Part shown: in pieces, positions 1,955-30,216 of the stretch
Numbering within the stretch: position 1 is the stretch's first letter
Layout of the letters: each line of letters opens with the position of its first letter
Source: a virus
Taxonomy: Duplodnaviria > Heunggongvirae > Uroviricota > Caudoviricetes
Virus record (IMG/VR): IMGVR_UViG_3300021138_000004
Direction: 5' to 3' (one strand)
DNA length: 64,000 nt
Position numbers and translations under genes: made by a program
Notes under the pieces: model-generated
The model's database searches: none
Told to the model about the DNA's origin: nothing
Seen by the model: only the letters and a program-made list of their open reading frames with translations

Positions 1955-1992
1955 TGCGATCCTTTAAGCATAGCACAGCGGGGTCTTGTGTG

Positions 1993-2032
1993 CTCTGTGC
2001 AATGACACTAGCATCTGCACAGAGCCTGTCAA
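1993..2032 (-). promoter_or_regulatory. sigma70-like promoter with inverted repeat (-35 TTGACA, -10 TAGTGT)
   Basis: minus strand TTGACA-16nt-TAGTGT; inverted repeat ctctgtgca...tgcacagag spans the -35/-10 region. Confidence 0.5.
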
Positions 2033-2272
2033 TTAGTAATGCAGCCGCGACCCCACATAGTTGTAGTCGTCGAGCAAGTCCTGATCCTGTTCCCACGCAA
2101 ACTGATCTGCGCGATCGTCATACAGCGAGGGATCGTCACGATCAATGAGTTCCTGCTCGATGTCGTAGAGCAAGAGATGATCATTGTCGTCGGCATCCCC
2201 ACTGCGAATGCGGTCACGAATCTCCGATTCAGCGTTCATAAGCCGAGAAGTGGACCATTCCGAAATACGCAT
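2033..2272 (-). CDS. hypothetical acidic protein (79 aa)
   Basis: ORF track; upstream TTGACA-17-TGTATA and AGGAG RBS. Confidence 0.55.
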   Translation of the reverse strand: MRISEWSTSRLMNAESEIRDRIRSGDADDNDHLLLYDIEQELIDRDDPSLYDDRADQFAWEQDQDLLDDYNYVGSRLHY

Positions 2273-2453
2273 AACAGTGTCTCCTTGTTCTAGTTCACAC
2301 TATATACAAGCAGTCAAAGTTGATGTCAAGTGATTTATTGTCCTAGCGATGGGGCACTTCCCCGTCATGGAGAGATTGCCTATTGACAACTGCCAAAATC
2401 CATGCTATTCATAGAACATGGAGAGAGTCAATCCTCTCTCCGTGCCCGTTCAA

Positions 2454-2669
2454 TCAATTCCAATCATCATCCCGAGCCGTGAGTGGATCGTAGCCAATCT
2501 CGTCCTTCCAAGTGCCGCCGAACAGTTCCTCTTCCTCGACTTCCCATTCGTCGAGATCAACTTCTTGGAAACCGTCGAGCTCTTCCTCGACCTCCGCATC
2601 CTCATCAAATCGACGACGATGTCCCGCGCCTTTGAACAGACGATCTAAAGGTGTAAAACGATCATTCAT
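2454..2669 (-). CDS. hypothetical acidic protein (71 aa)
   Basis: ORF track; AAGGAG RBS; overlaps upstream gene stop. Confidence 0.55.
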   Translation of the reverse strand: MNDRFTPLDRLFKGAGHRRRFDEDAEVEEELDGFQEVDLDEWEVEEEELFGGTWKDEIGYDPLTARDDDWN

Positions 2670-2948
2670 CTTCTTCTCCTTCTAGTGTAACTTCAATAAA
2701 GGGCATTTCATTCCAGTGCTGATCCCCTTCAATTCTACTATATTGTTCGAGATAGGACTCACAGATGTCTGCTAGCCAAACAAATCGATATTGATCTTCA
2801 GCACTCATTTTAACTGAGGCAGCAGAGTCTATGCGCTCGAGAACTGCGACAGTATAAGCGAGATCGTTGAGTGTGTCCGCAGACAAACAATGATCAATGT
2901 CTAACCGATGACCGGTCTCAAAGTTTACATAAGTGACATTCCTGTCCA
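2662..2948 (-). CDS. hypothetical protein (start adjusted to MDRNVTY)
   Basis: ORF track 2662..3009; internal ATG preceded by AAGGA RBS and promoter 3000..3028. Confidence 0.5.
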
Positions 2949-2999
2949 TGATCAATTCCTTGTATATACGCACACATGAGAGCGCGTGTTCATTGTGTA

Positions 3000-3028
3000 T
3001 ATATAACACACACTCACGAGCGTGTCAA
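3000..3028 (-). promoter_or_regulatory. sigma70-like promoter (TTGACA-17-TATATA)
   Basis: read on minus strand. Confidence 0.5.
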
Positions 3029-3039
3029 TACAAGTAGAC

Positions 3040-3780
3040 AACCTTTTTTGACTATATAGTGAGAACTAGGTCAACGAGAGATCATCGTATATAGAGAGAT
3101 CCTTGTATACGCGCAGTCCCATGCACAACAGCACAGCGGGGTCTTGGCTGTAGTGGGACTAAATGTGGTTCTATACAGTGACTGCCCCACTAAACAAACC
3201 ACCGAAAACCTCGAAGAATCGGGGAGTTCTTGGTCAGGTTTGACGGGATTTTTGAACGATTTGGATCAGTTTTCACAGGTTTTTTACTGTAAAAAAATTT
3301 GGATTGGCTACGGTGGAGAGAGGCTATGCTAGAATGGTTTTCATTCTTTTCTCAATTTTTCAATCTATATATGATCACCCTCTCGCCTCTTTCTCAATTT
3401 TTCAATCTATATATGATCACCCTCTCGCCTCTTTCTCAATTTTTCTCTCATCTCTCACTATATAAGCATCACCCTCTATATAGTCCCACTCTATATACGC
3501 AATCTCTCGATCACCCCCAGTTTCTCTATATATGAGTTCTAGTATATAGTCAATCACCCGCTCTGCTTCTAAACAGCTCTAGAGATTGTGTGTATATACA
3601 GCGCATTCTAGTTCTACAGTGGATTGGCTTATATAGTCAATCGTTCTGTTTTTATATAGTGAATTGGCATAAATAGTCATTGACTTTAGTGCCTTTGTTC
3701 TGTATACTTGATGTTGAGTTTGAACATTCGTTGAGTAGTTCTTCTATATAGATAGGGTTCACTTATACAACGAGTTCTTT
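3040..3780. repeat. about 0.7 kb non-coding AT-rich region with iteron-like repeats (TATATAGTCAAT x5 and tandem 42-bp units)
   Basis: no convincing ORF; repeated tatatagtcaat/tatatagtgaat elements; candidate origin or regulatory hub. Confidence 0.5.
3346..3500. repeat. tandem direct repeat, 42-bp unit tttctcaatttttcaatctatatatgatcaccctctcgcctc, 2 perfect copies plus degenerate copies
   Basis: seen directly at 3347-3431 then decaying. Confidence 0.7.
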
Positions 3781-4072
3781 ACTCAATACAATATCGAAAA
3801 AGAAATATACTGGCCCGCTTTTCGTCAGTGACAGTATATATAGCATAGAGTTCGTCGTCGTCTTCAATCTCGCGACTATATATCAATCCATATTCTTCTT
3901 CGATATAGTCTACTACCAGTCGAGGATCACCGGCCTTCATTAGCCGTCTTGCTATATGAAATATTCTATTCAAGGAAAGTTTAACTTCAGCCACAGTATT
4001 TGAGTATGAAAAAAGCGGCTCTTTTTTCATCAGTGACAGCATAAGCAACACGGCGGCCTCTTTGGAAGTCAT
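3779..4072 (-). CDS. hypothetical protein, paralog of 3987..4190 (shared C-terminal VTDEKRA..F..YC)
   Basis: ORF track; true start may be an internal Met. Confidence 0.45.
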   Translation of the reverse strand: MTSKEAAVLLMLSLMKKEPLFSYSNTVAEVKLSLNRIFHIARRLMKAGDPRLVVDYIEEEYGLIYSREIEDDDELYAIYTVTDEKRASIFLFRYCIE

Positions 4073-4190
4073 CGAAGGTAATTTGGTATGGAGTATATAC
4101 TAGTCCGAATTCCTGTTCGAGATCACAGTCAGAGAGACCTGCATATATAACGCGCACTTCTTGTTCTTCTGTGAGTTTGATTATCTTCAC
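3987..4190 (-). CDS. hypothetical protein, paralog of 3779..4072
   Basis: ORF track; conserved C-terminal motif. Confidence 0.45.
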   Translation of the reverse strand: MKIIKLTEEQEVRVIYAGLSDCDLEQEFGLVYTPYQITFDDFQRGRRVAYAVTDEKRAAFFILKYCG

Positions 4191-4220
4191 ATGATAAATC
4201 CCGTGAGTGCAATTGCGGGA

Positions 4221-4505: not shown

Positions 4506-4560
4506 CTTTGAGTCCCGTAAAAGATTGCACAACCAAACACCATAGAAGGCGGGTCGAACT

Positions 4561-4746: not shown

Positions 4747-4795
4747 TGTCTTTCTCCTATGTGTTGTTTATAGCAAAGACCTAGGGCAATGTCAA

Positions 4796-5278
4796 CTAGG
4801 CTTTCTTGCCGTAGTTCTTATCCCATTTACGAGCACAGCCTTCGATGATCATCACAGCATAACGGCAATGGAACTCGTCAAAGGTCTTGAGCAGGGCAGT
4901 ATCCACGGGCACATTGCAGTCACGCAACAGATAGCGAGCAATGGCCACCGGAAACACTCGGTCCGAATATTCGGGAGGGCGACTGCGAAGGTGCTCAACC
5001 AGCTCTTCACGGTTGTGGCCCAGCATCCACTGGCATTCGGCAATCTCAGCATCCCAATCATCATGTGAGCGGGCCTTGCGGGCAATCTCTGTGTAATTGG
5101 AACGACCGATCTGCGGACCCCGGGTAAAGTAGGTCAGTTTGGTCTCGGGTGCTGCAAAGTTCTCATGGAGAAAAGAGTAAAGATCATCCCAAGCACGATT
5201 TGCCTCTGCATGATCTCCATAGACAGTAGCCTCAATCACCGGACGAATCAACATAAGTGCAGTCTGATACTTGTCCAT
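4796..5278 (-). CDS. hypothetical protein (160 aa)
   Basis: ORF track. Confidence 0.55.
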   Translation of the reverse strand: MDKYQTALMLIRPVIEATVYGDHAEANRAWDDLYSFLHENFAAPETKLTYFTRGPQIGRSNYTEIARKARSHDDWDAEIAECQWMLGHNREELVEHLRSRPPEYSDRVFPVAIARYLLRDCNVPVDTALLKTFDEFHCRYAVMIIEGCARKWDKNYGKKA

Positions 5279-5330
5279 TTGTGTAACTCCTTGCTCTATG
5301 CTTATTGCATAGCAGCACTATCAGTGGAAG

Positions 5331-6216: not shown

Positions 6217-6304
6217 TTGTCTATCTCCTTGCTTGTGTATTAGCAGAGAACTAGATACAGGTCAACTTATTTCTTGGCCTTCATGTCGCCGTAAGAAATC
6301 AGGA

Positions 6305-7988: not shown

Positions 7989-8627
7989 ATGAAAAAGCTA
8001 TTTGTTCCTACTAGGTTATATATTAAAAGAATTGGAAATCTCCGGTATTTCGGAAAAACAAGTAATCTCAATGTTGAGAATTATCCTGGTTCTGGTAAAA
8101 TATGGAGAGATAAAATTAAAAAATATGGTAAATCGTCCATCATTACTGAATGGATTTCAGACTGGTATTACGATGCTGATGAAATTCGGGAAGTAGCAAT
8201 ATCATTTAGCATAGAGAATGATATTATCGATTCTGAAAATTGGGCCAATCTAAAAATAGAAAATGGAATAGATGGGGGACCGTGCGCCCATACAGTAGAA
8301 TCTAGGTCTAAAATCTCTAGGGGAGGCAAAGGTCGAATATGCTCGGAAATAACTAAAAGAAAAATAGCCAATGGAAAGCTGGGAAAGAATCATCCTTTAT
8401 TTACCGGACACTATGTAACACCTTGGGGAGTATTCGAATCCTCGTATGAAGCAAAACGAATGCTTGATCAAGATAGCGAATACAGCACATTGGCTCAAAG
8501 AACAATCCATCAATATTGTAAAGCTAACTGTGATAAAAGATTTGGTAAAAATGGAAATCTTCCTATCAACCGATGGTATAAAACCCCTAGAGAATTAGGT
8601 TTTGGATTTATTCCGGCAAATAATTAG
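7989..8627 (+). CDS. GIY-YIG-like homing endonuclease
   Basis: LYIKRIGNLRYFGKTS and ENWANLKIENG resemble I-TevI GIYxIxN..YVGSA / ENFWIKELNS; plus-strand insert in a minus-strand block. Confidence 0.6.
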   Translation: MKKLFVPTRLYIKRIGNLRYFGKTSNLNVENYPGSGKIWRDKIKKYGKSSIITEWISDWYYDADEIREVAISFSIENDIIDSENWANLKIENGIDGGPCAHTVESRSKISRGGKGRICSEITKRKIANGKLGKNHPLFTGHYVTPWGVFESSYEAKRMLDQDSEYSTLAQRTIHQYCKANCDKRFGKNGNLPINRWYKTPRELGFGFIPANN

Positions 8628-9006: not shown

Positions 9007-9252
9007 TTATTCTCCGCAATCCATAACGAAATAGTCAAAGACTTCCATGACCTTGAAATCATCGCAGTCCTGCAACCACTCTTTGACTTGCCGGGCAACC
9101 TTCTCAGGAAGCTCACTGACCTTGTCCTTGTCAGCATTGATGATCCCAAGATCAAAGTCCAGCATCATGTTCCAATCGTCAACCGTAAGGCCTTCGCGGC
9201 TTTCAATGTCATCCATGATACGATCGATGATAATTTTACGCATTTCATTCAT
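9007..9252 (-). CDS. hypothetical protein (81 aa)
   Basis: ORF track; AAGGAG RBS. Confidence 0.6.
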   Translation of the reverse strand: MNEMRKIIIDRIMDDIESREGLTVDDWNMMLDFDLGIINADKDKVSELPEKVARQVKEWLQDCDDFKVMEVFDYFVMDCGE

Positions 9253-9296
9253 TGTTTGTCTCCTTGCTTTGTTTGTAGCAGACAGTTAGAGAAGTG

Positions 9297-9626
9297 TCAA
9301 GGTTTCTTTTTGTGTTTCTTTACCAACCGATAGCCTAGTGCATCGGCAGCCTGCGTGATCAATTCGAGATCACGATGCTCTTGCCCGGGCCGCCATGCAG
9401 TATATGCCAAAGGAGTGAATGACGAATAGTGCTCAAGAGCAACCAGCGTCTGAGTATCAGCGTGGACACACTCGACAACAGATCCGTAACGACCAAGGCC
9501 TGATGCGAGCTGCATATTAATGCCCAATGTGCTCATATCGTGACGGATTTTCTGCCCGAGTGCAGGATCCTTGCTCCACTCGTGAGTGGCATCGTTGTTG
9601 AGCATAACCACAGTTCGAAAACCCAT
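9297..9626 (-). CDS. hypothetical protein (109 aa)
   Basis: ORF track. Confidence 0.55.
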   Translation of the reverse strand: MGFRTVVMLNNDATHEWSKDPALGQKIRHDMSTLGINMQLASGLGRYGSVVECVHADTQTLVALEHYSSFTPLAYTAWRPGQEHRDLELITQAADALGYRLVKKHKKKP

Positions 9627-10586: not shown

Positions 10587-10979
10587 TCAATCCTCCTCGT
10601 CGTAATCATCGATCCAGATATCATAGTTGTCATACCATGGATCGTTCTTGATCTCGGGCGTGTTCACCTTGGCCCACGCTAGGTATACTTCTGCATCAGC
10701 AAGATCATGGAACAGGTAGTGATCGTTGTGGTGTGCACCGATGTTGAGATCACCCAGGCATCCACTGGACTTGAATGTCTCGCTGCTCGACGAGCTGTCC
10801 ACATCATATTCGATCTCTCGAAAACCTGAATCATTGGTATGAAGATTGCGAACATTCTTCATCTCGGTCATGAAGCTGGCGCTGCCCAAGCCGTGGACAC
10901 CATACAGTGTCTTGCCTAGCAGACCGAACAGAATGGGCTTTTCTCTTTCGATTGCACCAAAGGGATAATTGTGAGTCAT
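10587..10979 (-). CDS. hypothetical protein (start MTHNYPFG)
   Basis: ORF track 10587..11318; AAGGAG RBS and TTGAC-17-TATAAG promoter upstream of internal ATG. Confidence 0.55.
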   Translation of the reverse strand: MTHNYPFGAIEREKPILFGLLGKTLYGVHGLGSASFMTEMKNVRNLHTNDSGFREIEYDVDSSSSSETFKSSGCLGDLNIGAHHNDHYLFHDLADAEVYLAWAKVNTPEIKNDPWYDNYDIWIDDYDEED

Positions 10980-11007
10980 TGTCGGTCTCCTTGCTTTGCT
11001 TATAGCA

Positions 11008-11373
11008 CTAGGGACGATAACCGTCAACAGGAATTTCTTCTCCGTCCGACAAAAGATCATCATGAAATTGCGCAAGGCGGCGAGGATATTCTGCAATCGC
11101 CCAGTCGATAATCTTCTGGACTTTTTGCTTGACATCTTGAATCGATGCAGGCAAATCGATGGAGATCCAACTGCTGTGATCAAGGCAGACCCGATCAATA
11201 CTGGGATCACACTTGTTGAGGTCGTCCTCCATGTCTTCCTGCAAGCGATGCAGAATGTTGGTGCGTTCGCTCCAGTACCACCGAGGTTCATTAGGCTGCA
11301 TCTGCCACATTGCATCAAATGGAGCCAATGCTTCGTCTAAGTGAAGTGTTGCGCCGTAAGTAATAGTGATCAT
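11008..11373 (-). CDS. hypothetical protein (121 aa)
   Basis: ORF track. Confidence 0.6.
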   Translation of the reverse strand: MITITYGATLHLDEALAPFDAMWQMQPNEPRWYWSERTNILHRLQEDMEDDLNKCDPSIDRVCLDHSSWISIDLPASIQDVKQKVQKIIDWAIAEYPRRLAQFHDDLLSDGEEIPVDGYRP

Positions 11374-11406: not shown

Positions 11407-11652
11407 CTAGGCAGCTTGCAGCAGGAGGTCTTCTTGCTCGAGTTGGCGATAGTATTCGCAACGAGCAAGGAAATCCTCAGGTGATTCGTTGTGATACGGG
11501 CGTTCACCGTATTCCTTGATGATGTCGCGGATTTCGCGCGGAAGGCTGTCGTAGTATTCCATTTCTTCGGCAGCCCACATCTTGATTTGTTCGTTGATAA
11601 AGATCATTTCCCAATCTCCTTGTTTTGTGTGTTGCGTATAGCGTAACAGCAC
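11407..11652 (-). CDS. hypothetical protein (81 aa)
   Basis: ORF track. Confidence 0.6.
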   Translation of the reverse strand: MLLRYTQHTKQGDWEMIFINEQIKMWAAEEMEYYDSLPREIRDIIKEYGERPYHNESPEDFLARCEYYRQLEQEDLLLQAA

Positions 11653-12599
11653 TAGGCTGTCACGAGGCCTTCTCCGCGGCTACTTTGAGCAGCTGACTTG
11701 CATAGACTGCGATACGCGGCCCTGCTGAGCGCCCTGCCCTTGCTGTCATATTCCTGAACAACCGTTTCGGTAATGACCGGTGCGTCATACTCGGTGTTGA
11801 CCGTTCCTTCGAGTGTTTCGTCGGCGCCCAACTCGCCGACGATCTCATACCTGCAGCTTCGACCCTTGCTGTCATTGTAATCGCTCGGAATCGACACCAC
11901 ATCGCGCGGGTTGATCTTGAGGATCATGATGCGATCACCGCCGAAGTAATTCAGGTAGTGCTGGCTGCAAAAGTGCAGGCCCTCGGAGCAGGTACGATCC
12001 TTGTCATCGTCGACAGCGTTGCGATCCATGCTGACCACAGTAATGCCGTTTTCAACAGCAACAGTGACCTTGCCGGCCTTCATGGGCATCGCAGCCGCTT
12101 CTTCAACAGTGAGCAGATCAGCGGGCTTGTTCAGCACCGTGCCTGAATGGATATCGAAGTAGTCGTTGCGGACCTTCTTGTAGGCCAGGAAATGACCATC
12201 AGGAGTGATGGGCAGTTCGCCCTTTTCCAGGAACCCATAAAGCTCGTCCACAGCCCGCTTCGAAGGATTCTGCATCAGGTTTTCCATGAACAGCACCATG
12301 GGCTCAATGCTGAAGCCTTCCTGATACATATTGATGATCTTGATGGCCAGCGAGTTGTGAAGCTTGTCACCCTTCCAGAACAGCGTATCGCCCTGGATGG
12401 TCACATTGCCCTGGCCGTAGTTGATCACAGTGGCCTTCGGATCGATCAGCTCGTCGATAGCAGCCCAGTCACTGGCCTTGATCGCGTCGATGATGCGGTT
12501 GTAGAACAAATGGGTGGAAGAAAAAGCGTGTGGCTTGTTGCCGATGACCACCGTCACATTTTTTCCCTGGACGATGAACGGATACCCCTTAGTATTCAT
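11652..12599 (-). CDS. rIIB: rIIB membrane-associated protein
   Basis: FMENLMQNPSKRAVDELYGFL, DGHFLAYKKVRNDYFDIHS, DRTCSEGLHFCSQHYLNYFG and PRDVVSIPSDYNDSKGRSCRYEIV match conserved T4 rIIB blocks recalled from memory; size about 315 aa. Confidence 0.85.
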   Translation of the reverse strand: MNTKGYPFIVQGKNVTVVIGNKPHAFSSTHLFYNRIIDAIKASDWAAIDELIDPKATVINYGQGNVTIQGDTLFWKGDKLHNSLAIKIINMYQEGFSIEPMVLFMENLMQNPSKRAVDELYGFLEKGELPITPDGHFLAYKKVRNDYFDIHSGTVLNKPADLLTVEEAAAMPMKAGKVTVAVENGITVVSMDRNAVDDDKDRTCSEGLHFCSQHYLNYFGGDRIMILKINPRDVVSIPSDYNDSKGRSCRYEIVGELGADETLEGTVNTEYDAPVITETVVQEYDSKGRALSRAAYRSLCKSAAQSSRGEGLVTA

Positions 12600-15611: not shown

Positions 15612-15679
15612 TGTGTAGTCCTTCTGTTGCTGTCTACCTCTCTGTTTTAGCAGAAAAGTAGACAGCGTCAAGTGGTTTT

Positions 15680-15987: not shown

Positions 15988-16599
15988 ATGAATATTTATT
16001 ACGTCTACGCATACCTTCGAACAAAAGATCTCACACCATATTACATCGGCAAAGGTAAAGGTCGCAGGGTTTATGAAAAACATAACGTCCCTGTTCCTTC
16101 TGATAAATCCCGTATCGTGTTTCTTGAAAAAAACCTAACTGATATCGGCGCGTGTGCATTAGAGCGAAGATATATTCGTTGGTATGGACGAAAAGATATC
16201 AACACTGGAATACTCCGGAATAGGACCGACGGCGGCGAAGGAACTTCTGGTTTCATCCGTGACCAAGAATTGGTAGTTAGAACAATGGAAACCAGAAGAA
16301 AAAACGGAACGTGGTCGACAGTTACTCCGGAATCTATTGCGTTGAGAACAGAAACTAGAAAACGCAATGGTTACCAATTTACAGAAAAATCTGCGGAAAA
16401 AATGCGCCAAACAAAAAATAAAAATGGAACCTCTAATTCTAATTCTCCGGAGTCTAATGCTAAACGAGTCGCTACTCGAAAGAGTAATGGCACCTACAAA
16501 CAGACTCCGGAGTCGATCGCCAAAATGCTAGAAACAAAGAGGCGAAATAAAGAATTAAGACTTAGTAGTAACATTGGATTTGAAAAGCATACCGGTTAG
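15988..16599 (+). CDS. GIY-YIG homing endonuclease (Seg-like) with NUMOD3-type repeats
   Basis: [33 protein letters not shown] motif; repeated SPESIAxxxETRKRNG units; AAGGAG RBS. Confidence 0.85.
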
Positions 16600-17339: not shown

Positions 17340-17993
17340 ATGTATTTACACAACAAATATTCTAAATGGTATAATTCGATTATCGAAAGAGCGCGTTCTC
17401 GTTCAATTGAGGGTTATACTGAATCACACCATATTATTCCTAAATGTATAGGCGGCACTAACAAGAAAGAAAATCTAGTGCGTCTTACCTATCGTGAACA
17501 TCGACTATGCCATTTATTGCTACCATATATGGTTACCTCTGAATACAAAGGACTGATGTGGAGGGCTGCAAAAGGTGTTCTAATGTATAATGGGCCAAAT
17601 CATGAACGGGTTGAAAGTAGAAGCCGATTAGCTGAGAAAGCTAGGATCGAAGCTACTTCGTCTCGCAAAGGTATTCCTCGCAGTCCGGAAACTATCGCTA
17701 AAATAAAAGCTACCAAAGCAGCGCGTCCGATGTCCGATGAAAATCGCGAACTATCTCGACAAAAACGAATTCGAGCAAACCAATCTCGAAAAGGAATGCC
17801 ACATAGTGCTGAACATAATCGAAAAGTTTCGGAATCACGAAACGGACAACAGTCACCAAATAAAGGAAAATCGATGAGCTTCGAGCAGCGCCAAAAAATA
17901 AGCGAAGCTCATAAGGGAAAAATAAGGAGCGTCGAACATTGTCAAAATATCAGCAAAGCAAAGACGACCGAGCTTAAGAATCGATCTACCTAA
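17340..17993 (+). CDS. HNH homing endonuclease with NUMOD3-type repeats
   Basis: ESHHIIPKCIGGTNKKENLVRLTYREHRLCHLL; repeated SPETIAKIKATK / SAEHNRKVSESR units. Confidence 0.85.
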   Translation: MYLHNKYSKWYNSIIERARSRSIEGYTESHHIIPKCIGGTNKKENLVRLTYREHRLCHLLLPYMVTSEYKGLMWRAAKGVLMYNGPNHERVESRSRLAEKARIEATSSRKGIPRSPETIAKIKATKAARPMSDENRELSRQKRIRANQSRKGMPHSAEHNRKVSESRNGQQSPNKGKSMSFEQRQKISEAHKGKIRSVEHCQNISKAKTTELKNRST

Positions 17994-18826: not shown

Positions 18827-18850
18827 TTACCTTACTCCTTTGTTTGTGTG

Positions 18851-18882
18851 TTGACACTAGCAACCTGCGTCCCTAGTGTCAA
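18851..18882 (-). promoter_or_regulatory. palindromic sigma70-like promoter (TTGACACTAG...CTAGTGTCAA)
   Basis: minus strand TTGACA-17-TAGTGT; 10-bp perfect inverted repeat covers both elements. Confidence 0.5.
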
Positions 18883-19515: not shown

Positions 19516-19544
19516 GTATTAACAACAGCACACGACCTTGTCAA
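19516..19544 (-). promoter_or_regulatory. sigma70-like early promoter (TTGACA-17-TAATAC)
   Basis: conserved spacer ...TGTGCTGTTG... shared with promoters at 19966, 20574 and 20914. Confidence 0.5.
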
Positions 19545-19550
19545 CAATTT

Positions 19551-19826
19551 TTAACGGATGCGGAAGAGATAGCTATTGCTGCCCTTGGCGAACACGATCT
19601 CAACGCCCGCGGCCTTGAGCGGACCATAGAGACGGTCTTCCTTTTCCTGAGCAGTCAGCTGGTTAGGAAACAGCGGGCGCTCGACCTTGACCACAGTGAA
19701 GGGCTTGCGATTGATACCGCGCTCATTTACGTAGAGCTTGGCGCCGTTGAAGAAGTCCTTGACGATGGCCTTGGTGCTCTCGACACGAAGGATGTGGTCG
19801 GGATCGTTGAAGAAATCTTCGTGCAT
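19551..19826 (-). CDS. hypothetical protein (91 aa)
   Basis: ORF track; AAGGAA RBS. Confidence 0.6.
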   Translation of the reverse strand: MHEDFFNDPDHILRVESTKAIVKDFFNGAKLYVNERGINRKPFTVVKVERPLFPNQLTAQEKEDRLYGPLKAAGVEIVFAKGSNSYLFRIR

Positions 19827-19836
19827 TTCCTTGGCC

Positions 19837-19935
19837 TAGCGGCAGCGATCCGCGGCGTCAAGCGCGGCGTGCTTGGCAGCAGCAAAGGAATAGGTAGTGT
19901 TGGTTTCGATTTCACGCTCTGCGAGGACATTCATG
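19837..19935 (-). CDS. small ORF (32 aa)
   Basis: ATG with GGAG RBS between promoter 19966..19994 and the next gene. Confidence 0.3.
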
Positions 19936-19965
19936 TTCGTTCTCCTTGTTTGTGTTGTGCTGTCA

Positions 19966-19994
19966 CTGTATTAGCAACAGCACAAGGCAATGTC
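19966..19994 (-). promoter_or_regulatory. sigma70-like early promoter (TTGACA-17-TAATAC)
   Basis: read on minus strand. Confidence 0.5.
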
Positions 19995-20004
19995 AAGAAC
20001 TATT

Positions 20005-20223
20005 TTACTGGTTGACCGCCAAACTTGCTTCGGTGTCTTCGATGTCCAATCCCATAGCGGTAGATTCGGCCCATGTCAAATCTCGATCGTCATTCAATTC
20101 AAGAACAGGAAATAGCTTGACATGGTCGCCATTTGGCAGCAGAATCATACGAGGACTGACATCGTCTAACCGGCTGCCCTCAGGGACTTCAATCGTCCCT
20201 GAGAGTGTGAACTTGATAATCAT
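20005..20223 (-). CDS. hypothetical protein (72 aa)
   Basis: ORF track; immediately downstream of tRNA-Lys. Confidence 0.55.
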   Translation of the reverse strand: MIIKFTLSGTIEVPEGSRLDDVSPRMILLPNGDHVKLFPVLELNDDRDLTWAESTAMGLDIEDTEASLAVNQ

Positions 20224-20249
20224 TGGGCTTCATCCTCTTCTAAACAGTT

Positions 20250-20326
20250 TGGTGGACCCTCTGGGACTCGAACCCAGGACAACCGCATTAAAAGTGCGAT
20301 GCTCTAACCTACTGAGCTAAGGGTCC
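20250..20326 (-). tRNA. tRNA-Lys (anticodon UUU), CCA encoded
   Basis: hand-folded cloverleaf: acceptor GGACCCT/AGGGTCC, D arm GCTC/GAGC, anticodon stem TCGCA/TGCGG with loop CTTTTAA, T arm CTGGG-TTCGAGT-CCCAG. Confidence 0.85.
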
Positions 20327-20336
20327 ATTAACTTAT

Positions 20337-20546
20337 TTAAGCAACACGCCAGTTTTCAATGACCATTGTATCGCGGAAATCCTCGTAGAGGTATCCTTCT
20401 TCCATGGCAGCGATCAGTGCATCGCCGTTGCCGATGATTCGTTCACCATGGCAGTTTTCCATGATGTATTCGGAGTATTCCATATCGAGCCGACAGTCGT
20501 CAAACGCCTCTTCGAACTCTTCAACAGTCTGGAACTTCTTGGTCAT
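20337..20546 (-). CDS. hypothetical protein (69 aa)
   Basis: ORF track; AGGAG RBS. Confidence 0.6.
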   Translation of the reverse strand: MTKKFQTVEEFEEAFDDCRLDMEYSEYIMENCHGERIIGNGDALIAAMEEGYLYEDFRDTMVIENWRVA

Positions 20547-20573
20547 TGCGCGACTCCTTTGTTTGTTGTGCTA

Positions 20574-20602
20574 TGTATAGCAACAGCACATGACCTTGTC
20601 AA
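20574..20602 (-). promoter_or_regulatory. sigma70-like early promoter (TTGACA-17-TATACA)
   Basis: read on minus strand. Confidence 0.55.
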
Positions 20603-20606
20603 TGAT

Positions 20607-20882
20607 TTATTCTGCCTCTTCAATCCAATTCAGGACCTTGTAGAACTCTTCGCGCGGAGCAGTATCCTGCCGATAGATACGATCGCTAAGGATATCAACG
20701 TCGCGATCGTCGAGGAAGTCAGCAAGATTGCCGGCATTGTAAGCGATATCGTCATCGAGCATTGCCACCATTTCGGTGTCGCCTTTCTTTGCCCAATATT
20801 CGGTCTGCAAACGAAAATCCTCGAGAACCCGCAGCATCTCATTCTTGATCTGTTCAACGAGTTCATCAGTGGCCTTAGCCAT
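20607..20882 (-). CDS. hypothetical protein (91 aa)
   Basis: ORF track. Confidence 0.6.
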   Translation of the reverse strand: MAKATDELVEQIKNEMLRVLEDFRLQTEYWAKKGDTEMVAMLDDDIAYNAGNLADFLDDRDVDILSDRIYRQDTAPREEFYKVLNWIEEAE

Positions 20883-20913
20883 TTACCTGCTCCTGTGTTT
20901 GTGTTGCTGCTAC

Positions 20914-20942
20914 TTAATAGCAACAGCAACACACCTTGTCAA
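20914..20942 (-). promoter_or_regulatory. sigma70-like early promoter (TTGACA-17-TATTAA)
   Basis: read on minus strand. Confidence 0.5.
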
Positions 20943-20968
20943 CTGGTTAATCGTTGAAAATCTCAATT

Positions 20969-21295: not shown

Positions 21296-21352
21296 TTACT
21301 TGCTCCTTTGTTTGTGCTGTGACAATAGCATCATAGACAGTTAAGTCAATGA

Positions 21353-23719: not shown

Positions 23720-23761
23720 CTGAATATTTGAGGTTTGCGCTGGGTTTGTATAAATAATAAT

Positions 23762-24469
23762 ATGATACCTGGATATGCTTATTTGATTGAAAACACTGTT
23801 ACTGGACAGTATTATTATGGATCTCGGACTGCTAATGTTAGGCATAATCGATTGCCTGTAGATGACCTGTGGAAATGTTATTTCACTTCATCGCGCGATG
23901 TTAAACGAATAATCAAGGAATTTGGAAATGAATCGTTTGTTGTCAAAGTGGTATTTGAGAGCACCGATTTAGATGAAGTGTATTGGGTAGAACAGTCACT
24001 GATTAAACAATATATTGAAGATCCCCAGTGCATTAACAAAAAATATCAAGATAAAGATTCGGGACACGAGATTTTCAGCACCGCCGGTAAAATTTCATGG
24101 AATAAAGGATTACCTTCTTTGAAAAAAGGTATAACCCGATCTCCGGAAATTAAGGCAAAGATAAGTGAAGCTAGAAAAGGTAAAGGTCTAGGGATTGCAC
24201 CTTCGAATAAAGGAATCCCTATGTCTCCTGAAAGGTATGATCTGCATATGGCTGCAATTTCTAAACGAAGGTCTTATGCGGGCGAAAACAATCACTTCTT
24301 TGGAAAAACTCATTCACCCGAAATCAAAGCCCTCATTGCAGCAAACACTAGCAAAGCACAAAAGGGCAAGCCTAAAACTAAAAAGGCTTGCCCTCATTGT
24401 GAAAAATTATATGCACCTCACCTTATGTCACGACATCGGTGTGTTATGCCGCCCGACGTAGAAGCGTAG
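23762..24469 (+). CDS. GIY-YIG (Seg-like) homing endonuclease
   Basis: MIPGYAYLIENTVTGQYYYGSR...DLW..YFTSS shared with 28173 and 46744 genes; C-terminal repeated SPEIKAKISEARKGK units. Confidence 0.75.
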   Translation: MIPGYAYLIENTVTGQYYYGSRTANVRHNRLPVDDLWKCYFTSSRDVKRIIKEFGNESFVVKVVFESTDLDEVYWVEQSLIKQYIEDPQCINKKYQDKDSGHEIFSTAGKISWNKGLPSLKKGITRSPEIKAKISEARKGKGLGIAPSNKGIPMSPERYDLHMAAISKRRSYAGENNHFFGKTHSPEIKALIAANTSKAQKGKPKTKKACPHCEKLYAPHLMSRHRCVMPPDVEA

Positions 24470-26220: not shown

Positions 26221-26330
26221 GACACTTCTCCTGCCACGTATTTATTCTGGTAGGCATAAAGTTAAGTTAAAATTACCTATTCCGCCACGCTCGCATTGTT
26301 TGCCTATTATAGCTTATGCCTTAGGCAATG

Positions 26331-26582
26331 TCAACTGATTCCAAAAAATATCTTTATCCGCTTGCTGACTGCGTCTGCACCAATGCGGAACACTCGAGCT
26401 CGCGCCGGAGTAAATGAATATTCAGCATCGTCCTTGGCCCGCTCGCATTGGGCAACGCAATCATCAATGACGCATTTGGCGAACTTCTCGATCGCACTGG
26501 CAGACACTGATGAATAGTCACCGTCTCGCGGCCAAACAGTGAAGGTGCTTTCTTCCCAAAGTGCTTTGATGTAGTTGTTCAC
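26331..26582 (-). CDS. hypothetical protein (83 aa)
   Basis: ORF track. Confidence 0.6.
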   Translation of the reverse strand: MNNYIKALWEESTFTVWPRDGDYSSVSASAIEKFAKCVIDDCVAQCERAKDDAEYSFTPARARVFRIGADAVSKRIKIFFGIS

Positions 26583-27013: not shown

Positions 27014-27069
27014 TTTCTGCTCCTTTGTTGTGCGCCTATACTAGCACAAGATTAGGCAATGTCAACAAA

Positions 27070-27330: not shown

Positions 27331-27335
27331 TTCTC

Positions 27336-28034
27336 CTAGTCAATAACAAAACCCGAGGTGTCCTTGCGAGCATGACCCTTGGCCTTCAAACCGATCACGC
27401 ATTGCGTGTGATTAAGGAAGCGAAAATCGTCCTCGTCGCCGTCGACCACAGGCAAGCCCAGGTGCGTTGTGGGCAAAACCTTACGGAACACCGTTGCGAC
27501 ATTGTAACCCTGCTTGACAGCTTCGACAACGTCAGCAAGATTGCCGTCTGCCTGCGAGAATGTCAAGTGATAGTTTGGCAATGCGGCGGTCTTGCGACCC
27601 AGGATCTTGGTATAGTCGTAGAACTGCACCGTCGGAAACTCTTGGATGATGCCATACTTCTCCCAGGCAATGTCCGAAGTGCCGTTCAACCGAAACACCG
27701 GCACCATGTCCTTCTTTGCAGCCTGCTTGATGGCCTTGGCAATGTCTTCCTTGAGTTGAGCAACAAAGCCCGCCCGATCTTCCACGAAGAAGCGAGTCTT
27801 GCGCTTGCGAGCTTCCTGCACATGATTGGTGGTCATTCCGGGTTTGAACATACCACCTTGACCGGCAGTATTGAGGCAAGCGGCCTTGCATCCAGCAGTG
27901 GCCTTCGGACACATATTGCCTACGCCGGCTACATCGCTGGGCGAGAGATGCAGAATGTAGGTGGAATAATTCTTTTCGAGACTTTTTGCGGTTTTCGGGT
28001 TGCCATTAGGCTGAGTAAGAAGTTTGAAAGTCAA
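27336..28034 (-). CDS. hypothetical protein (232 aa; TTG start, Cys cluster CPKATAGCKAAC)
   Basis: ORF track; AGGAG 6 nt upstream of TTG. Confidence 0.55.
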   Translation of the reverse strand: MTFKLLTQPNGNPKTAKSLEKNYSTYILHLSPSDVAGVGNMCPKATAGCKAACLNTAGQGGMFKPGMTTNHVQEARKRKTRFFVEDRAGFVAQLKEDIAKAIKQAAKKDMVPVFRLNGTSDIAWEKYGIIQEFPTVQFYDYTKILGRKTAALPNYHLTFSQADGNLADVVEAVKQGYNVATVFRKVLPTTHLGLPVVDGDEDDFRFLNHTQCVIGLKAKGHARKDTSGFVID

Positions 28035-28172
28035 TCGAATCTCCTGTGCAGCGGTTGTTGATTAACGGTATAAAAGAGTTTCAACATACTGTCAAGAGGT
28101 ATTTTGATAAATAAGTATGGTTCGCGGAACGGGAATTCCCAACCACTCTAAAACTGATTAGGAGTTTCAGCC

Positions 28173-28808
28173 ATGTCTATTTATTACACTTACCATCTAT
28201 ATCACAAGCTAACTGACAAAAATTATTATGGAGTCAGGTATGCAAAAGGATGTCACCCTTCTGATCTATGGACAATTTATTTCTCATCTTCTAAAGAAGT
28301 GCGTAAACTTATCGAAGAACACGGTAGAGATTCATTCGTAGCACAAGTTCGAAAAACTTTTCCTACTAAAGATGCAGCCATAGAATGGGAAACCCGGTTT
28401 CTGCGAAAAATTAACGCTGCTAATAATGACCGATGGTTAAACCGATCAAACGGTGATAAAAATTTCAGAGGGACAGGATTGTCTAGTGATAAACAACGTC
28501 GAGCGTCTAGTAAAGCAAATAAAGGAAAAATCGTTAGCGAAGAGACTCGTCAAAAAATACGAGATGCCCGAAAACGGCAGGCTCCGCCTAGTGAAGAAAC
28601 TCGTCGTAAAATCAGTGAGTCGAACAAAAATCGAGTGCATAGCGAAGAGACTCGCCGAAAACTAAGTGACGCTCAAAAAGGTCGCGTTTTCAGTAAAGAG
28701 TCTCGTGCTAAAATGAGTGAAGCAAGAAGAAACATTACTGAAGAAACGCGACTTAAATTGAGTTTGGCAAAAAAAGGCCAAATTCCTTGGAATAAAGGTA
28801 AAAAATGA
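28173..28808 (+). CDS. GIY-YIG (Seg-like) homing endonuclease with NUMOD3 repeats
   Basis: MSIYYTYHLYHKLTDKNYYGVRYA; repeated SEETRQKIRDARK units; close paralog of 46744..47424. Confidence 0.8.
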   Translation: MSIYYTYHLYHKLTDKNYYGVRYAKGCHPSDLWTIYFSSSKEVRKLIEEHGRDSFVAQVRKTFPTKDAAIEWETRFLRKINAANNDRWLNRSNGDKNFRGTGLSSDKQRRASSKANKGKIVSEETRQKIRDARKRQAPPSEETRRKISESNKNRVHSEETRRKLSDAQKGRVFSKESRAKMSEARRNITEETRLKLSLAKKGQIPWNKGKK

Positions 28809-28833
28809 AAAAATAATAGAAAATTAAAATCTA

Positions 28834-29727
28834 TTATTTTTTAAGGGCATACATAAAATCTTTTGGGATAGCACCACTTGCTTGGAACGGTGCAGTCATC
28901 ATCACGTTGCTGGAGGCCTTGGCGGCCTGAGCTGCCAACGCCTTGGCCTTTTCAACGGCCATCTTCGCAGGTTCGACTCTCTGCGGATCCCCGGTAGGAA
29001 GATCGGTTTCTACCATAGTCCAAACCTGGCCCAGCACTGGGGTAACGTCCCACGGTGAGCGGCGAATCCAATACTTCTCATTGATGGGGATTGCCAAACT
29101 GTCAACCATATTGGCAAAAACCGAATCAAGCCCCACAAAGATCTCTGCCCCTTCCAAAATTGGAATCCAATCAAAAATGCTCCAACCCAAATGTTGGTCG
29201 ATGTCCACAATCTGTGTCCCCACAGGTATCCAACTGAGATCTAGGTCTACGCGCCCGGAACTGCCGGTAAGATGGACAACGGCATATGGTTTGGAAAGTT
29301 GCAGTTTGCTTTGCAGCTCGGATTCACGGTTTTCATTTCTGGTGATACAATCGGCGAGTGTCCACTTTTTGGTAAATGGAACTTGGCTGACCCAATACTT
29401 ATATTGGTCGAACTTCAACACTGCGAACAGTTCTGGATCGGTTAGTTCTGGCATTGAGCTCAGATATTGGTAGAGGTAAAGTTGATCCTCTTCTGGAATT
29501 CCTTCTTTGGCCAATGCTGCTCGCGGACCATCCAGGAAGAATAGGCCCTGTGGATCTGTGGTAAGCGGAATCCAGTTGACCCAAGGAACGTTATCTACAA
29601 ACGAACTGTGAAATTCCTCACAGATGGGCCAGTAGATTTCGTCACCTAGGTCGTGGTAATGTTTTGCGATCGGCAATGCAATAATAATATCACCTAGACC
29701 GCGACTTTGAATAATTCCTCGTTTCAT
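28834..29727 (-). CDS. putative GT-B glycosyltransferase (GT9-like N-terminus)
   Basis: MKRGIIQSRGLGDIIIALPIAKHY resembles the RxxxLGD N-terminus of heptosyltransferase-type GT-B enzymes; start moved from track 29766 to MKRG. Confidence 0.45.
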   Translation of the reverse strand: MKRGIIQSRGLGDIIIALPIAKHYHDLGDEIYWPICEEFHSSFVDNVPWVNWIPLTTDPQGLFFLDGPRAALAKEGIPEEDQLYLYQYLSSMPELTDPELFAVLKFDQYKYWVSQVPFTKKWTLADCITRNENRESELQSKLQLSKPYAVVHLTGSSGRVDLDLSWIPVGTQIVDIDQHLGWSIFDWIPILEGAEIFVGLDSVFANMVDSLAIPINEKYWIRRSPWDVTPVLGQVWTMVETDLPTGDPQRVEPAKMAVEKAKALAAQAAKASSNVMMTAPFQASGAIPKDFMYALKK

Positions 29728-29728
29728 T

Positions 29729-29872
29729 CTACATCCTAAAAAAGCTGACCAGTGAGCCCGGCCCATACATATGCTCGACCAGCGACCTAACTTCGCTGTC
29801 GTAGTCAGCGTTAACCATAATAGTTGCGCGCTGGGTTTCAGTAAGACGAACGATTGCCCTATAACGATTCAT
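29729..29872 (-). CDS. small ORF (47 aa)
   Basis: ATG ORF ending 2 nt before the glycosyltransferase start; weak support. Confidence 0.3.
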   Translation of the reverse strand: MNRYRAIVRLTETQRATIMVNADYDSEVRSLVEHMYGPGSLVSFFRM

Positions 29873-29946
29873 TGTTCATGTCCTTTGTATGTATGTGTAC
29901 ACATATTTGATATATGCGCGAGCACACTGTATGCTCGTACTTACGC

Positions 29947-30216
29947 ACAGCGGGGTCTTTGCACACGGCGTTCTGGCCCAGCGTTGTCTAAGTTCCTGCA
30001 GTATATGATAGCGCACATCATAGGTCAAGCATTAATTTGCACACGCTTGCTCATACACACAACAAGTTACAGCGGGGTCTTTAGCGTTAATGGTAAACAT
30101 ATGCACTTGACACGGAATAAGTGCGTATATATAATGCAGGCATACACATCACATCCGTGGTGTGGTTTCAACCTAGATTTATGTGTGAACACGCATAAAG
30201 TTACAGCGGGGTCTTT
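29947..30216 (+). repeat. three copies of 14-bp motif ACAGCGGGGTCTTT spaced about 122 and 134 bp apart in the divergent control region
   Basis: copies at 29947, 30069 and 30203; further copies at 1975 and 3133. Confidence 0.6.
30107..30135 (+). promoter_or_regulatory. consensus sigma70 promoter TTGACA-17-TATAAT heading the rightward block
   Basis: ttgaca cggaataagtgcgtata tataat on the plus strand. Confidence 0.6.

Follow-up and report, generated by a model that had tools for sequence, protein, structure and literature searches.

The window, that is, the whole 64-kb stretch of DNA analysed here, is from an uncultured freshwater T4-like phage and carries rIIA/rIIB, ligase, and gp13/gp15 nearby. 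Toward its middle, two blocks of early genes diverge as the initial annotation described: the leftward genes end at 29872 and the rightward genes start at 30222. Three copies of a 13-nt word (R1 to R3) lie in the gap between them, and two more (L1 and L2) lie near the left end of the window. The features are as follows:

1975..1987, + strand: motif copy L1, exact match, extended form AGCACAGCGGGGTCTTG
1993..2032, - strand: PeSL-like leftward promoter-in-hairpin cassette, as read from the sequence
3010..3778, no strand: long non-coding stretch with copy L2, read likewise
3133..3145, + strand: motif copy L2, exact match, with the same extended 17-mer, AGCACAGCGGGGTCTTG, as L1
27336..28034, - strand: GP88-family gene (PF17338)
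28834..29872, - strand: first leftward genes, 47 aa (29729-29872) and 297 aa (28834-29727)
29947..29959, + strand: motif copy R1, exact match
30000..30028, - strand: leftward early promoter P_left, TTGACC-N17-TATACT, both hexamers kept in close relatives
30069..30081, + strand: motif copy R2, exact match
30107..30135, + strand: rightward early promoter P_right, TTGACA-N17-TATAAT, sigma70-type, 12/12
30203..30215, + strand: motif copy R3, exact match
30222..30386, + strand: first rightward early gene, 54 aa, hydrophobic N-terminus, conserved in relatives

The word and its two loci

A scan of the window for ACAGCGGGGTCTT returned five exact + strand copies, at 1975, 3133, 29947, 30069, and 30203, and no further site at up to two mismatches; all five are identical and none is degenerate. 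Shuffled sequence gave a mean of 0.82 matches at this tolerance, and none of 100 shuffles reached five. The word is also the most frequent 11-, 12-, and 13-mer of the 64 kb on either strand. Its extended form is (C)ACAGCGGGGTCTT(T), 15 bp, with C favoured before and T after; past these preferred bases the flanks of the window copies do not align. The word contains no hairpin and has no complementary copy in the window. The initial annotation was correct as to the five positions, the spacings of 122 and 134 nt among the last three copies, and the consensus plus-strand promoter at 30107, and the orientation bias it proposed checking is complete (5/5). It had named a similar density irrespective of context as the counter-case; in the sequence at hand, the parent contig has no copy in the 3 kb to the left or the 10.6 kb to the right of the window, and the word is limited to two loci in ~77 kb, lying 27 kb apart and in the same orientation. 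It is unreported.

At the right locus, R1 lies 40 nt past the -10 of P_left, which puts it at ~+35 to +47 of the leftward transcript; the 47-aa gene starts 75 nt further on, and the ~40 nt to the left of R1 are invariant in close relatives. R2 falls between the two divergent promoters at ~-73 to -61 of P_right, leaving 25 nt to the -35 downstream of it. R3 is found at ~+62 to +74 of the P_right transcript, whose 80-nt leader is nearly invariant throughout in close relatives. Its 13-mer ends 6 nt ahead of the ATG of the 54-aa ORF (5 nt for the 14-mer, as originally noted). Synonymous changes outnumber non-synonymous ones in this ORF among relatives, and an indel hot spot lies downstream of it. 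On the other side, the GP88 gene marks a conserved block left of the cluster in most relatives. The GC content at the cluster is 40-53%, and the cumulative GC-skew minimum of the window falls at 28-30 kb. GIY-YIG and HNH nuclease genes are numerous, both in the window at large and beside the cluster; among the genes near the word, none has a DNA-binding annotation or a solved homologue.

At the left locus, L1 follows a hairpin-embedded leftward early promoter, 17 nt past its -10, and precedes by 22 nt the start (1952/1954) of the leftward gene 1695-1952; it is kept in relatives L015-L018. The promoter (-35 TTGACA at 2032-2027, -10 TAGTGT at 2010-2005) and its stem arms (1993-2001 and 2016-2024) recall PeSLs, the promoter-stem-loop cassettes of T4-type hyperplastic regions, which are gene-oriented promoter and hairpin units of degenerate sequence. 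Comparison of indels shows that an ENA variant of the phage has an extra 99-aa gene with a copy of the 42 nt at 1991-2032 on either side of it; the duplicated cassette excludes the word, and its second copy has none. L2 lies at the left edge of the ~770-nt non-coding stretch. The next leftward gene begins ~180 nt downstream of it, with that gene's own promoter-like site in between. The description of both left copies as lying in minus-strand 5' leaders is therefore apt for L1 but too simple for L2. A hairpin with a 7-bp stem (arms 3151-3157 and 3186-3192) follows 5 nt past L2, and the remainder of the stretch holds many TATATA boxes, a 42-nt tandem repeat at 3348-3445 whose copy number differs between strains, and GC down to 32-34% at 3600-3800.

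Conservation and promoter geometry in relatives

The core CAGCGGGGTCT occurs in two to five copies, on one strand, in ~20 related metagenomic phage contigs, and is invariant across 53 non-redundant copies. Information content falls to ~0 within 2-3 nt either side of it; the flanks around the word cannot be aligned, and neighbouring proteins are 30-70% identical. The clusters lie in a large early control region beside the GP88 gene block, and orientation is constant within a genome whether the local genes run leftward or rightward, including in one relative with two loci ~23 kb apart. In relatives of 356 and 383 kb, the 15-mer CACAGCGGGGTCTTT matches in one fetched locus per contig, a scan that misses copies with other flanking bases. 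In L206 and L211 two copies lie inside the coding sequence of the 297-aa homologue, antisense and in different frames. A long + strand ORF that spans the window cluster does not stay open in relatives. The orthologous third copy in L209 is ~190 nt from the start of the 54-aa homologue.

Spacing between copies is 112-134 nt in the window's lineage, 26-378 nt outside it, and shows no 10.5-bp periodicity, so the earlier description of the right copies as phased does not hold and a helically phased array is rejected. No bacterial counterpart of the word was found. Some GP88-bearing relatives are without it, one of which has a different direct repeat in the control region. The same regions of relatives also carry other repeat arrays of 10-11-nt period, AAAGTGTG or GTGTGGAATT, together with palindromes, and these arrays are absent from the window. 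The gene adjoining the cluster varies by lineage (c0 in most, the 47-aa and 297-aa genes in the window); no nuclease gene is common to all motif-bearing loci, nor do contig ends and motif coincide consistently.

The distance from R2 to the -35 of a near-consensus rightward promoter is 23-25 nt in the window, L006/L009, L007/L010, and L209, although the intervening sequences are unrelated. A copy lies 23 nt from the -35 in L004, and TTGACT is 24 nt from a copy in L012 and L049. In the window's lineage, R1 is 35-42 nt past the P_left -10 (~+28 to +35 of the transcript) and the third copy lies past the rightward start, at +41 to +62. In clade 2 a copy lies 25-72 nt past a 12/12 leftward promoter, and in L038 a 52-nt intergenic gap holds a TATA box with a copy on each side. 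For other copies in the wider family, the -35 starts 0-2, 4, or 12 nt off or there is no promoter nearby, and P_right has no upstream copy in L206 or L211.

Proposed operator-type sites and the alternatives

Constraint on the word acts at the level of DNA: its orientation is independent of the genes, and its antisense coding copies lie in different frames, which points to selection on DNA, not RNA or peptide. We tentatively suggest, at somewhat less than an even chance, that the copies are operator-type sites for a putative, probably phage-encoded, monomeric DNA-binding protein at the main early promoters. The word would be a double-stranded-DNA recognition site of ~1.5 helical turns and, because it is asymmetric, its reader is probably a monomer or head-to-tail units. 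The three right-hand sites bracket both divergent promoters (the initial transcribed region of P_left, the inter-promoter space, and the P_right leader), and the other two lie beside promoters of the leftward early block, 27 kb from this cluster. The sites, their conservation and positions, and the DNA-level constraint are observed; we infer the protein, the sign of its regulation, and any looping. Once made, the protein would occupy the sites and modulate transcription by host RNA polymerase; the most likely effect is that the very strong early promoters are shut off or throttled, by a roadblock and/or short loops of 120-135 bp, and downstream TATATA-type promoters may stay free. Such a word could be frozen as one protein reads many sites, which would all have to change at once for a new specificity to arise.

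Several observations support operator-type sites: the copies are non-random and exact (5/5 identical); the core is invariant while flanks are unalignable and proteins diverged; promoter geometry is kept (R2 at 23-25 nt, R1 at 35-42 nt); and the lack of a bacterial counterpart indicates that the word is not a host element. Relatives with GP88 and without the word would fit an accessory module of protein plus sites that is present or absent. The suggestion is weakened by the lack of a binder among the neighbouring genes, where the adjoining gene differs by lineage, and by a strict uniform orientation, even between loci 23 or 27 kb apart, that a simple operator or roadblock does not need. Similarly, position is not fixed in the wider family (L206 and L211 included), spacings show no helical phasing, and, at the -66 site, a consensus promoter needs no activator.

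Among the roles proposed in the initial annotation, then, we favour a regulator over a replication-protein site because of the fixed geometry to two promoters. The latter remains a candidate, although an unlikely one: the copies would be iterons or accessory sites of a phage replication origin, bound by an initiator protein in the early control region, with transcription from the adjacent strong promoters helping the origin to open and the second locus serving as a second origin or in handcuffing control. Direct repeats in one orientation, three to five per cluster, in a large non-coding region would suit this, as would the same-strand second locus 23-27 kb away and the tandem repeats and 32-34% GC stretch of the left locus. 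Copies also reach into coding sequence (L206, L211), and lambda iterons lie inside gene O. The AAAGTGTG or GTGTGGAATT arrays and palindromes of relatives are likewise suggestive, but the arrays are missing from the window. The copies are irregularly spaced, at 26-378 nt, which is far wider than in classical iteron arrays; the right cluster has no AT-rich unwinding element, and no initiator-like gene was recognised near it. The GC-skew minimum at 28-30 kb agrees with an origin, but is not independent evidence since transcription direction switches at the same place.

A polar, strand-specific DNA mark (a nick, a terminase pac-type array, or a one-way block to replication or transcription) is an improbable reading of the word. 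Site-specific nicks occur in T5, phiKMV, or tf-like phages, and an invariant core is what an enzyme recognition sequence should have. All copies of a genome lie on one strand whatever the transcription direction, also between distant loci, and GIY-YIG and HNH genes abound. Against this, the copies cluster at promoters instead of being dispersed, one of them at a fixed distance from a -35 hexamer; no one nuclease gene runs through all motif-bearing loci, and contig ends do not consistently track the motif.

Slimmer again is the chance that the word acts in RNA, as a Shine-Dalgarno-like GGGG leader, in processing, in boxA/nut-like antitermination, or as an RNA-pairing site. R3 does precede an ATG that otherwise lacks a Shine-Dalgarno sequence, a copy in L028 lies 8 nt ahead of an ATG, the leader downstream of P_right is almost invariant, and GGUCUUUA resembles the boxA core, GCUCUUUA. 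The word's reverse complement, AAAGACCCCG, is identical to 10 nt of 23S rRNA around A2058, though such a match has a chance probability of ~0.05. However, some transcripts carry the word in sense and others in antisense; it lies antisense inside a gene in L206 and L211, and has no conserved hairpin or partner, nor a complementary copy in the window; leaders fold no better than shuffles (z -1.5 and -0.3), and a search of Rfam gave no match. The proposed role in RNA processing or translation is thus disfavoured by the single orientation, the antisense coding copies, and the loss of start-codon proximity in L209, and the word is rejected both as a Shine-Dalgarno site and, separately, as a terminator.

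Finally, that the copies are passive, functionless relics of recombining mobile PeSL-type promoter cassettes is very improbable and largely refuted by the pattern of conservation. In its favour, the PeSL-like cassette directly beside L1 occurs twice in another strain, once on each side of an inserted gene, and word regions are indel hot spots. However, the cassette duplicates without the word, and a neutral remnant would neither remain exact across 53 copies as the sequence around it randomises nor turn up again inside coding sequence.

Comparison with known systems

As candidate operator-type sites, the copies may be set beside phage early multi-site operators, such as the phi29 p4 sites between promoters A2b/A2c and A3 and lambda OL/OR, and the promoter bracketing of the gal OE/OI type. 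Here too, several copies of one recognition sequence surround early promoters that are divergent or in tandem, and they lie before, between, and after the start points, with a site possible inside the first gene, and inter-site distances of ~110-135 bp suit short loops. Those operators are dyad-symmetric and degenerate, whereas the word is asymmetric, in a single orientation, and letter-perfect; its cognate protein is putative, and it has extra copies 27 kb away.

Iterons (RK2 oriV, P1 oriR/incA, lambda ori in gene O, T4 oriE) are asymmetric direct repeats in one orientation, as is the word, and are read by monomers; their clusters with distant auxiliary copies, coding-sequence placement, and promoter adjacency resemble it further. 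They are usually 17-22 bp with a regular spacing of ~21-23 bp, in contrast to the irregular 26-378 bp here, and adjoin an AT-rich unwinding element and an initiator gene, neither of which was found at the window's cluster.

The T4 MotA box of middle promoters is also a short asymmetric box of a T4-type phage, read by a phage protein with host RNA polymerase. MotA boxes lie at -30, at a fixed distance to the -10, at dozens of promoters and oriented with the gene; the word has few copies per genome, lies at ~-66 or downstream of starts, and is oriented independently of genes. PeSLs share its early small-gene region, and L1 is directly beside one such cassette, but the word is outside the duplicated unit, has no hairpin, and is invariant. 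Similarly, the nick consensus of T5, phiKMV-like, and tf/PaP3-like phages (~9-19 nt) is conserved, asymmetric, and on one strand only; those sites are dispersed and their nicking has been physically shown, whereas the word clusters at promoters.

The word and its conservation

The sequence ACAGCGGGGTCTT, called the word here, occurs exactly at 1975, 3133, 29947, 30069 and 30203 (copies L1, L2, R1, R2 and R3), on the plus strand every time, and a scan allowing two mismatches added no further site in the window. It is the window's most repeated 11-, 12- and 13-mer, none of the window shuffles attained five matches, and when the five copies are aligned the identity is limited to the word itself. 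The five identical copies reported in the initial annotation are confirmed by these results, and the count and orientation that it proposed checking came out as five copies in the 77 kb searched, about half of the 143-kb parent contig, on one strand and at two loci only.

Metagenomes were scanned for pairs of copies separated by 100-130 nt, which gave ten phage contigs as well as a bacterial coding repeat of the BNR type (L014) that is unrelated and was discarded; further relatives came from IMG/VR scans with a 15-mer and a 14-mer, and from retrieval of the neighbourhood of GP88 (PF17338), a gene of the leftward block beside R1-R3 that occurs on more than 8000 contigs. The motif-bearing relatives comprise ~20 contigs from at least six lineages, with two to five copies each. 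Once near-identical flanks had been removed, 53 copies were left for a sequence logo. CAGCGGGGTCT is invariant across this set (n=53), position 1 is A in 48/53, the preceding base is C in 37/53, the two bases that follow are mostly T, and outside the word and its edge bases there is essentially zero information. The invariant core is 11-15 nt long. Flanks align with the window in the closest lineage only (84-98%), where the middle copy lies within ~90 nt of replaced sequence; in the other lineages they are unalignable, and the proteins in common have 30-70% identity.

Scanning 185,579 bacterial genomes for two copies gave 44 matches, all of them unrelated high-GC coding or other repeats. Similarly, a literature search with the sequence string found unrelated human, HSV and mycobacterial papers only. 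The element is unreported and resides in uncultured phages. Three GP88-bearing relatives (L204, L207 and L210) lack the word; in the divergent control region of L204 (3937-4506) another 19-mer, CCTAAATAACTTGCTGCGC, is repeated directly five or six times, and three of these repeats form a 39-nt tandem array.

The phage and its genome

The window encodes rIIA (13458-15671, minus strand), rIIB (11652-12599, minus strand), an ATP-dependent DNA ligase, an endolysin and two tRNAs. INPHARED contained no nucleotide-level relatives of it, and its rIIA is at most ~44% identical to those of known phages. A freshwater metagenome contig in ENA (ERZ27271863:k141_150948; 143,109 bp) is a near-exact match, and the same phage is also present in JGI and Logan lake assemblies; the source metagenomes are ERZ27271863, SRR4029405 and JGI 3300020727 and 3300021142. 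Because the JGI contig extending to the left carries T4 gp13- and gp15-like genes, we regard this as an uncultured T4-type phage. Close GP88 homologues are found on contigs of 291-357 kb, and the true genome may therefore exceed 143 kb.

Several features of this genome deserve a record in their own right. Homing-endonuclease-like genes are unusually dense, most of them opposite in strand to their neighbours, and leftward early-promoter modules (TTGACA ... TAGCA/TATAGC, then a Shine-Dalgarno sequence), typical of T4-type hyperplastic early regions, recur upstream of small genes.

Homing-endonuclease-like genes and leftward early-promoter modules in the window
7989-8627, 15988-16599, 17340-17993, 23735-24469, 28173-28808 and 57027-57665, plus strand: GIY-YIG/NUMOD3 and HNH homing-endonuclease-like genes
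40524-42876 and 56496-57008, minus strand: GIY-YIG/NUMOD3 and HNH homing-endonuclease-like genes
4768-4797, 6217-6267, 9252-9300, 10979-11027, 11612-11643, 18831-18862, 19520-20948, 21299-21330 and 26307-26336, leftward: early-promoter modules

Small rightward early proteins (31759-32802 and 37081-37409) have a common C-terminal ...F(T/M)(L/M)F(L/V)L(R/K)W(A/S/V) tail, and their genes (repeat families D3 and D16) stand in tandem with overlapping stop/start codons (ATGA/GTGA). A 71-aa protein (56275-56490, plus strand) with a precomputed Pfam match to eIF-1a (PF01176, S1-like IF1 fold) could be a version of translation initiation factor IF1 encoded by the phage. To the right of the window, a 524-aa gene (L019, 20290 onward; record ~74.6 kb) has a precomputed Pfam match to the N-terminal domain of the major tropism determinant (Mtd_N), which hints at the target of a diversity-generating retroelement. 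In addition, a 471-aa SPFH/Band-7 domain protein (50154-51569, plus strand) ends in Ala/Pro/Gly-rich repeats, and similar low-complexity repeats are found in a 152-aa protein (57996-58454) and in the endolysin linker (58925-59002).

Placement relative to genes and promoters

Genes run leftward to ~29.9 kb and rightward from ~30.2 kb, in keeping with the divergent blocks described in the initial annotation, and the consensus plus-strand promoter that it placed at 30107 is read there as TTGACA-N17-TATAAT.

The word and its nearest promoters in the window
1975, plus strand: copy L1
TTGACA 2032-2027, N16, TAGTGT 2010-2005, minus strand: L1-side leftward promoter, embedded in a hairpin with a 9-bp stem
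3133, plus strand: copy L2
29947, plus strand: copy R1
30028 to 30000, leftward: early promoter P_left, TTGACC-N17-TATACT
30069, plus strand: copy R2
30107-30135, rightward: early promoter P_right, TTGACA-N17-TATAAT
30203, plus strand: copy R3

Left of the motif clusters there is a conserved leftward gene block, which in most lineages consists of the c0 gene family, a small GIY-YIG-like gene and then GP88, and in the window of GP88, a homing endonuclease, a 297-aa gene and a 47-aa gene. Within a cluster the copies are all on one strand. In a 116-kb contig two loci on the same strand are ~23 kb apart, a 91-kb contig also has two same-strand loci, and the window's own two loci are 27 kb apart; a possible exception is a single plus-strand copy in a 382-kb contig whose cluster is on the minus strand. 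In the window and most lineages the genes left of the cluster run leftward, and in L028 and L041 the word is codirectional with the genes and a tRNA around it; its sense relative to transcription is therefore not constant. Three of the window's five copies are antisense to local genes. Two relatives, L206 and L211, each have a single intergenic copy and two copies inside the coding sequence of the 297-aa homologue, the latter antisense and in different frames (coding ETPLR and LDPAV). A 152-aa plus-strand ORF across the window cluster reads the three copies in three frames and is not kept open in relatives, and a peptide or coding repeat was rejected on these grounds. An orientation independent of the genes, the antisense intragenic copies and the spurious ORF indicate that the constraint is on the DNA.

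Both P_left and P_right are conserved in the close lineage. In the window, R2 ends 25 nt upstream of the -35 hexamer of P_right; L006/L009 and L007/L010 have 24-25 nt at this place and L209 has 23 nt, with unrelated spacers. Similarly, a copy in L004 precedes TTGACT-N17-TATACT by 23 nt, and L012 and L049 have TTGACT 24 nt after a copy but poor -10 hexamers. R1 follows the -10 of P_left by 40-42 nt in the close lineage and by 35 nt in L211; in clade 2 a copy follows a leftward promoter matching at 12/12 positions by 25-72 nt. R3 lies 47-67 nt after the -10 of P_right, and L1 is 17 nt past the -10 of its hairpin-embedded promoter. A fixed position with a changing spacer, as expected of an operator, is seen for R2 in four sequence-divergent variants plus L004, and for R1; it does not extend to every copy in the wider family. 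In L038 a 52-nt gap directly ahead of a ribosome-binding site holds a TATA box with a copy on each side. For the remaining copies a -35 begins 0-2, 4 or 12 nt past the word, or no promoter can be recognised. In clades 2-5, unlike the window's lineage, TATA boxes are enriched ~2-fold directly past the word. The copies had also been called phased; with spacings of 26-378 nt in relatives and no 10.5-bp periodicity, helical phasing was rejected.

The surroundings of the copies have peculiarities of their own. The ENA contig has an extra 311 nt, a 99-aa leftward gene between two copies of a 42-nt promoter-hairpin cassette (window 1991-2032; L015), and two other assemblies break at this point, which looks like cassette-mediated gene gain or loss. 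The word lies outside the cassette, and the duplicated cassette of the ENA strain comes without a second copy of it. Beside L2 there is a further segment:

3010-3778: ~770-nt non-coding stretch with many TATATA(G/C) boxes in both orientations and several inverted repeats

This stretch may be an origin or a multi-promoter region; GC falls to 32-34% at 3600-3800, 450 nt from L2, and the copy number of a 42-nt tandem repeat at 3348-3445 differs between the window and the ENA contig. Control regions of relatives have AAAGTGTG(A) or GTGTGGAATT arrays with a 10-11-nt period, as well as a palindrome (TATGAnTCATA) and, upstream of the first copy, a conserved block of the form GGYATAG...AATGGTTAC; the window has none of these.

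Repeat arrays, palindrome and conserved block in relatives
L012: 5150-5365
L027: 9900-10110
L057: 13250-13430
L004: 8810-8860

Clades 2-5 have a conserved ~100-140-nt block before the first copy. In L028 (1886-2061, oriented) and L041, where tRNA genes flank the cluster, a ~170-nt segment in that position starts with GGGAGG, ends with CCCUCCCA and looks structured. On inspection, the clades 2-5 block and the L028/L041 segment had no shared structure or Rfam match.

What the word may do

Several known classes of DNA element can be set aside. MotA boxes are centred near -30, are followed after 11-13 bp by a -10 hexamer, point the same way as the gene and occur on many promoters; there is no such conserved position downstream of the word, which has five copies in 77 kb and a gene-independent orientation. 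PeSL cassettes, mobile units in which the spacer and start region of an early promoter fold into a stem-loop, are likewise a poor match, as the word contains neither promoter hexamers nor a stem. Chi and KOPS are words of 5-8 nt, over-represented across the genome with a strand bias, and here an 11-15-nt core is found at one or two loci.

The reading we favour, at slightly less than even chances, is that the word is an operator-type site for a putative sequence-specific DNA-binding protein. We prefer it because the word is compact, asymmetric and frozen across deep divergence under a DNA-level constraint, because its geometry to two promoters is kept while spacers turn over, and because multiple copies surround the strongest early promoters. 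The three right-hand sites bracket both promoters, at about +35 to +47 (left) and at -73 to -61 and +62 to +74 (right), and the protein might repress or throttle P_left and P_right through a roadblock and/or loops of 120-135 bp. The protein, the sign of regulation and the looping are what we infer from this arrangement. Such a binder would presumably be phage-encoded, since a host counterpart is absent, some related phages (L204, L207 and L210) lack the word, and the control region of L204 contains another direct repeat, of 19 nt. We rate the operator reading no higher because the binder was not found, the uniform orientation is unexplained and the positional rule is not family-wide. Among neighbour families, c0 (66-86 aa, adjoining the cluster in 10 loci), c14 (HTH-like) and c13 (GIY-YIG) were rejected as binders, being absent from the window; no relative of GP88, of the 297-aa protein or of the c7 protein is solved or annotated, and there were no matches to Rep-like families among the neighbour genes.

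That the copies are replication-origin iterons is unlikely, if worth keeping in mind. Three or more direct repeats in one orientation are what iterons look like, and such a role would fit the intragenic copies, the second locus and the relatives' other arrays of 10-11-nt period. However, the spacing is irregular and wide (26-378 nt) where a regular, close array would repeat about every two helical turns, the window cluster has no AT-rich unwinding element (GC 40-53% across 29900-30300), and an initiator gene is not evident.

Uniform orientation, an invariant core and a consensus on one strand only, as at strand-specific nick sites of the T5, phiKMV and tf type, would all be explained if the word were a polar DNA mark: a nick, a pac array or a one-way barrier. 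Since this leaves the promoter geometry unexplained, we think it improbable.

We see still less prospect for an element acting at the RNA level. The initial annotation had listed an RNA processing or translation role among its candidates; the mixed sense of the copies and the antisense intragenic ones contradict it, as does the loss of start proximity in L209, where the R3 ortholog is ~190 nt from the start codon. Only R3 (6 nt) and one copy in L028 (8 nt) closely precede starts, which is not the behaviour of a Shine-Dalgarno sequence. A nut/boxA antitermination site would be a sense-strand RNA element past a promoter, with a boxB-like hairpin or consensus boxA; the word, which we take to resemble boxA, is of mixed sense relative to transcription and has no conserved hairpin beside it. 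A terminator scan was silent at all copies, and the window copies, folded with 35 nt upstream, gave no tight hairpin; a terminator half-site was rejected, as the T-run is not preceded by one. In a few relatives only, an upstream C-run pairs with GGGG across large loops. In the window and 19 related loci Rfam matched tRNAs and nothing else, and leader folds were no better than shuffles. Around A2058 (GACGGAAAGACCCCGUGAACC), 23S rRNA shares 10 nt with the extended reverse complement AAAGACCCCG, as the E. coli sequence confirmed; this is probably a coincidence (estimated chance probability ~0.05).

A more specific proposal, to which we give very little weight, is a strand-specific mark at which a phage nickase or one-way barrier protein would direct polar events at both borders of the 27-kb leftward early block. 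The uniform orientation across loci 23-27 kb apart, the invariant core and the abundant nuclease genes are compatible with it. In T4, a sliding clamp that is loaded where the non-transcribed strand is nicked activates late transcription; if the nickase version were true, programmed nicks at the word would be built-in "enhancers" or replication-priming points. Finally, that the copies are neutral relics is contradicted by their conservation and scarcely credible.

To our knowledge, MotA/AsiA are absent from T4-type phages other than the T-even group. Here, a precisely delimited and deeply conserved cis-element lies at the main early control region of uncultured freshwater phages that form a large and abundant group; their genomes measure 143 kb or more, and some relatives are on contigs as long as ~380 kb. 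The 15-bp element is a potential bait for its protein and marks the control region in metagenomic contigs, and so offers a handle on early-gene control, or replication, in non-T-even T4-type phages. If the binder is a new early-promoter regulator or an origin-binding protein, a long-standing gap, how these phages switch off or re-programme their very strong early promoters, becomes testable without a cultured host; if the uniform orientation reflects a polar DNA transaction, the word would represent a novel type of genome organiser among T4-like phages. It is alike in kind to known multi-site operators or iterons but, unlike them, it is invariant, and its copies are strictly co-oriented, irregularly spaced and divided between two loci.
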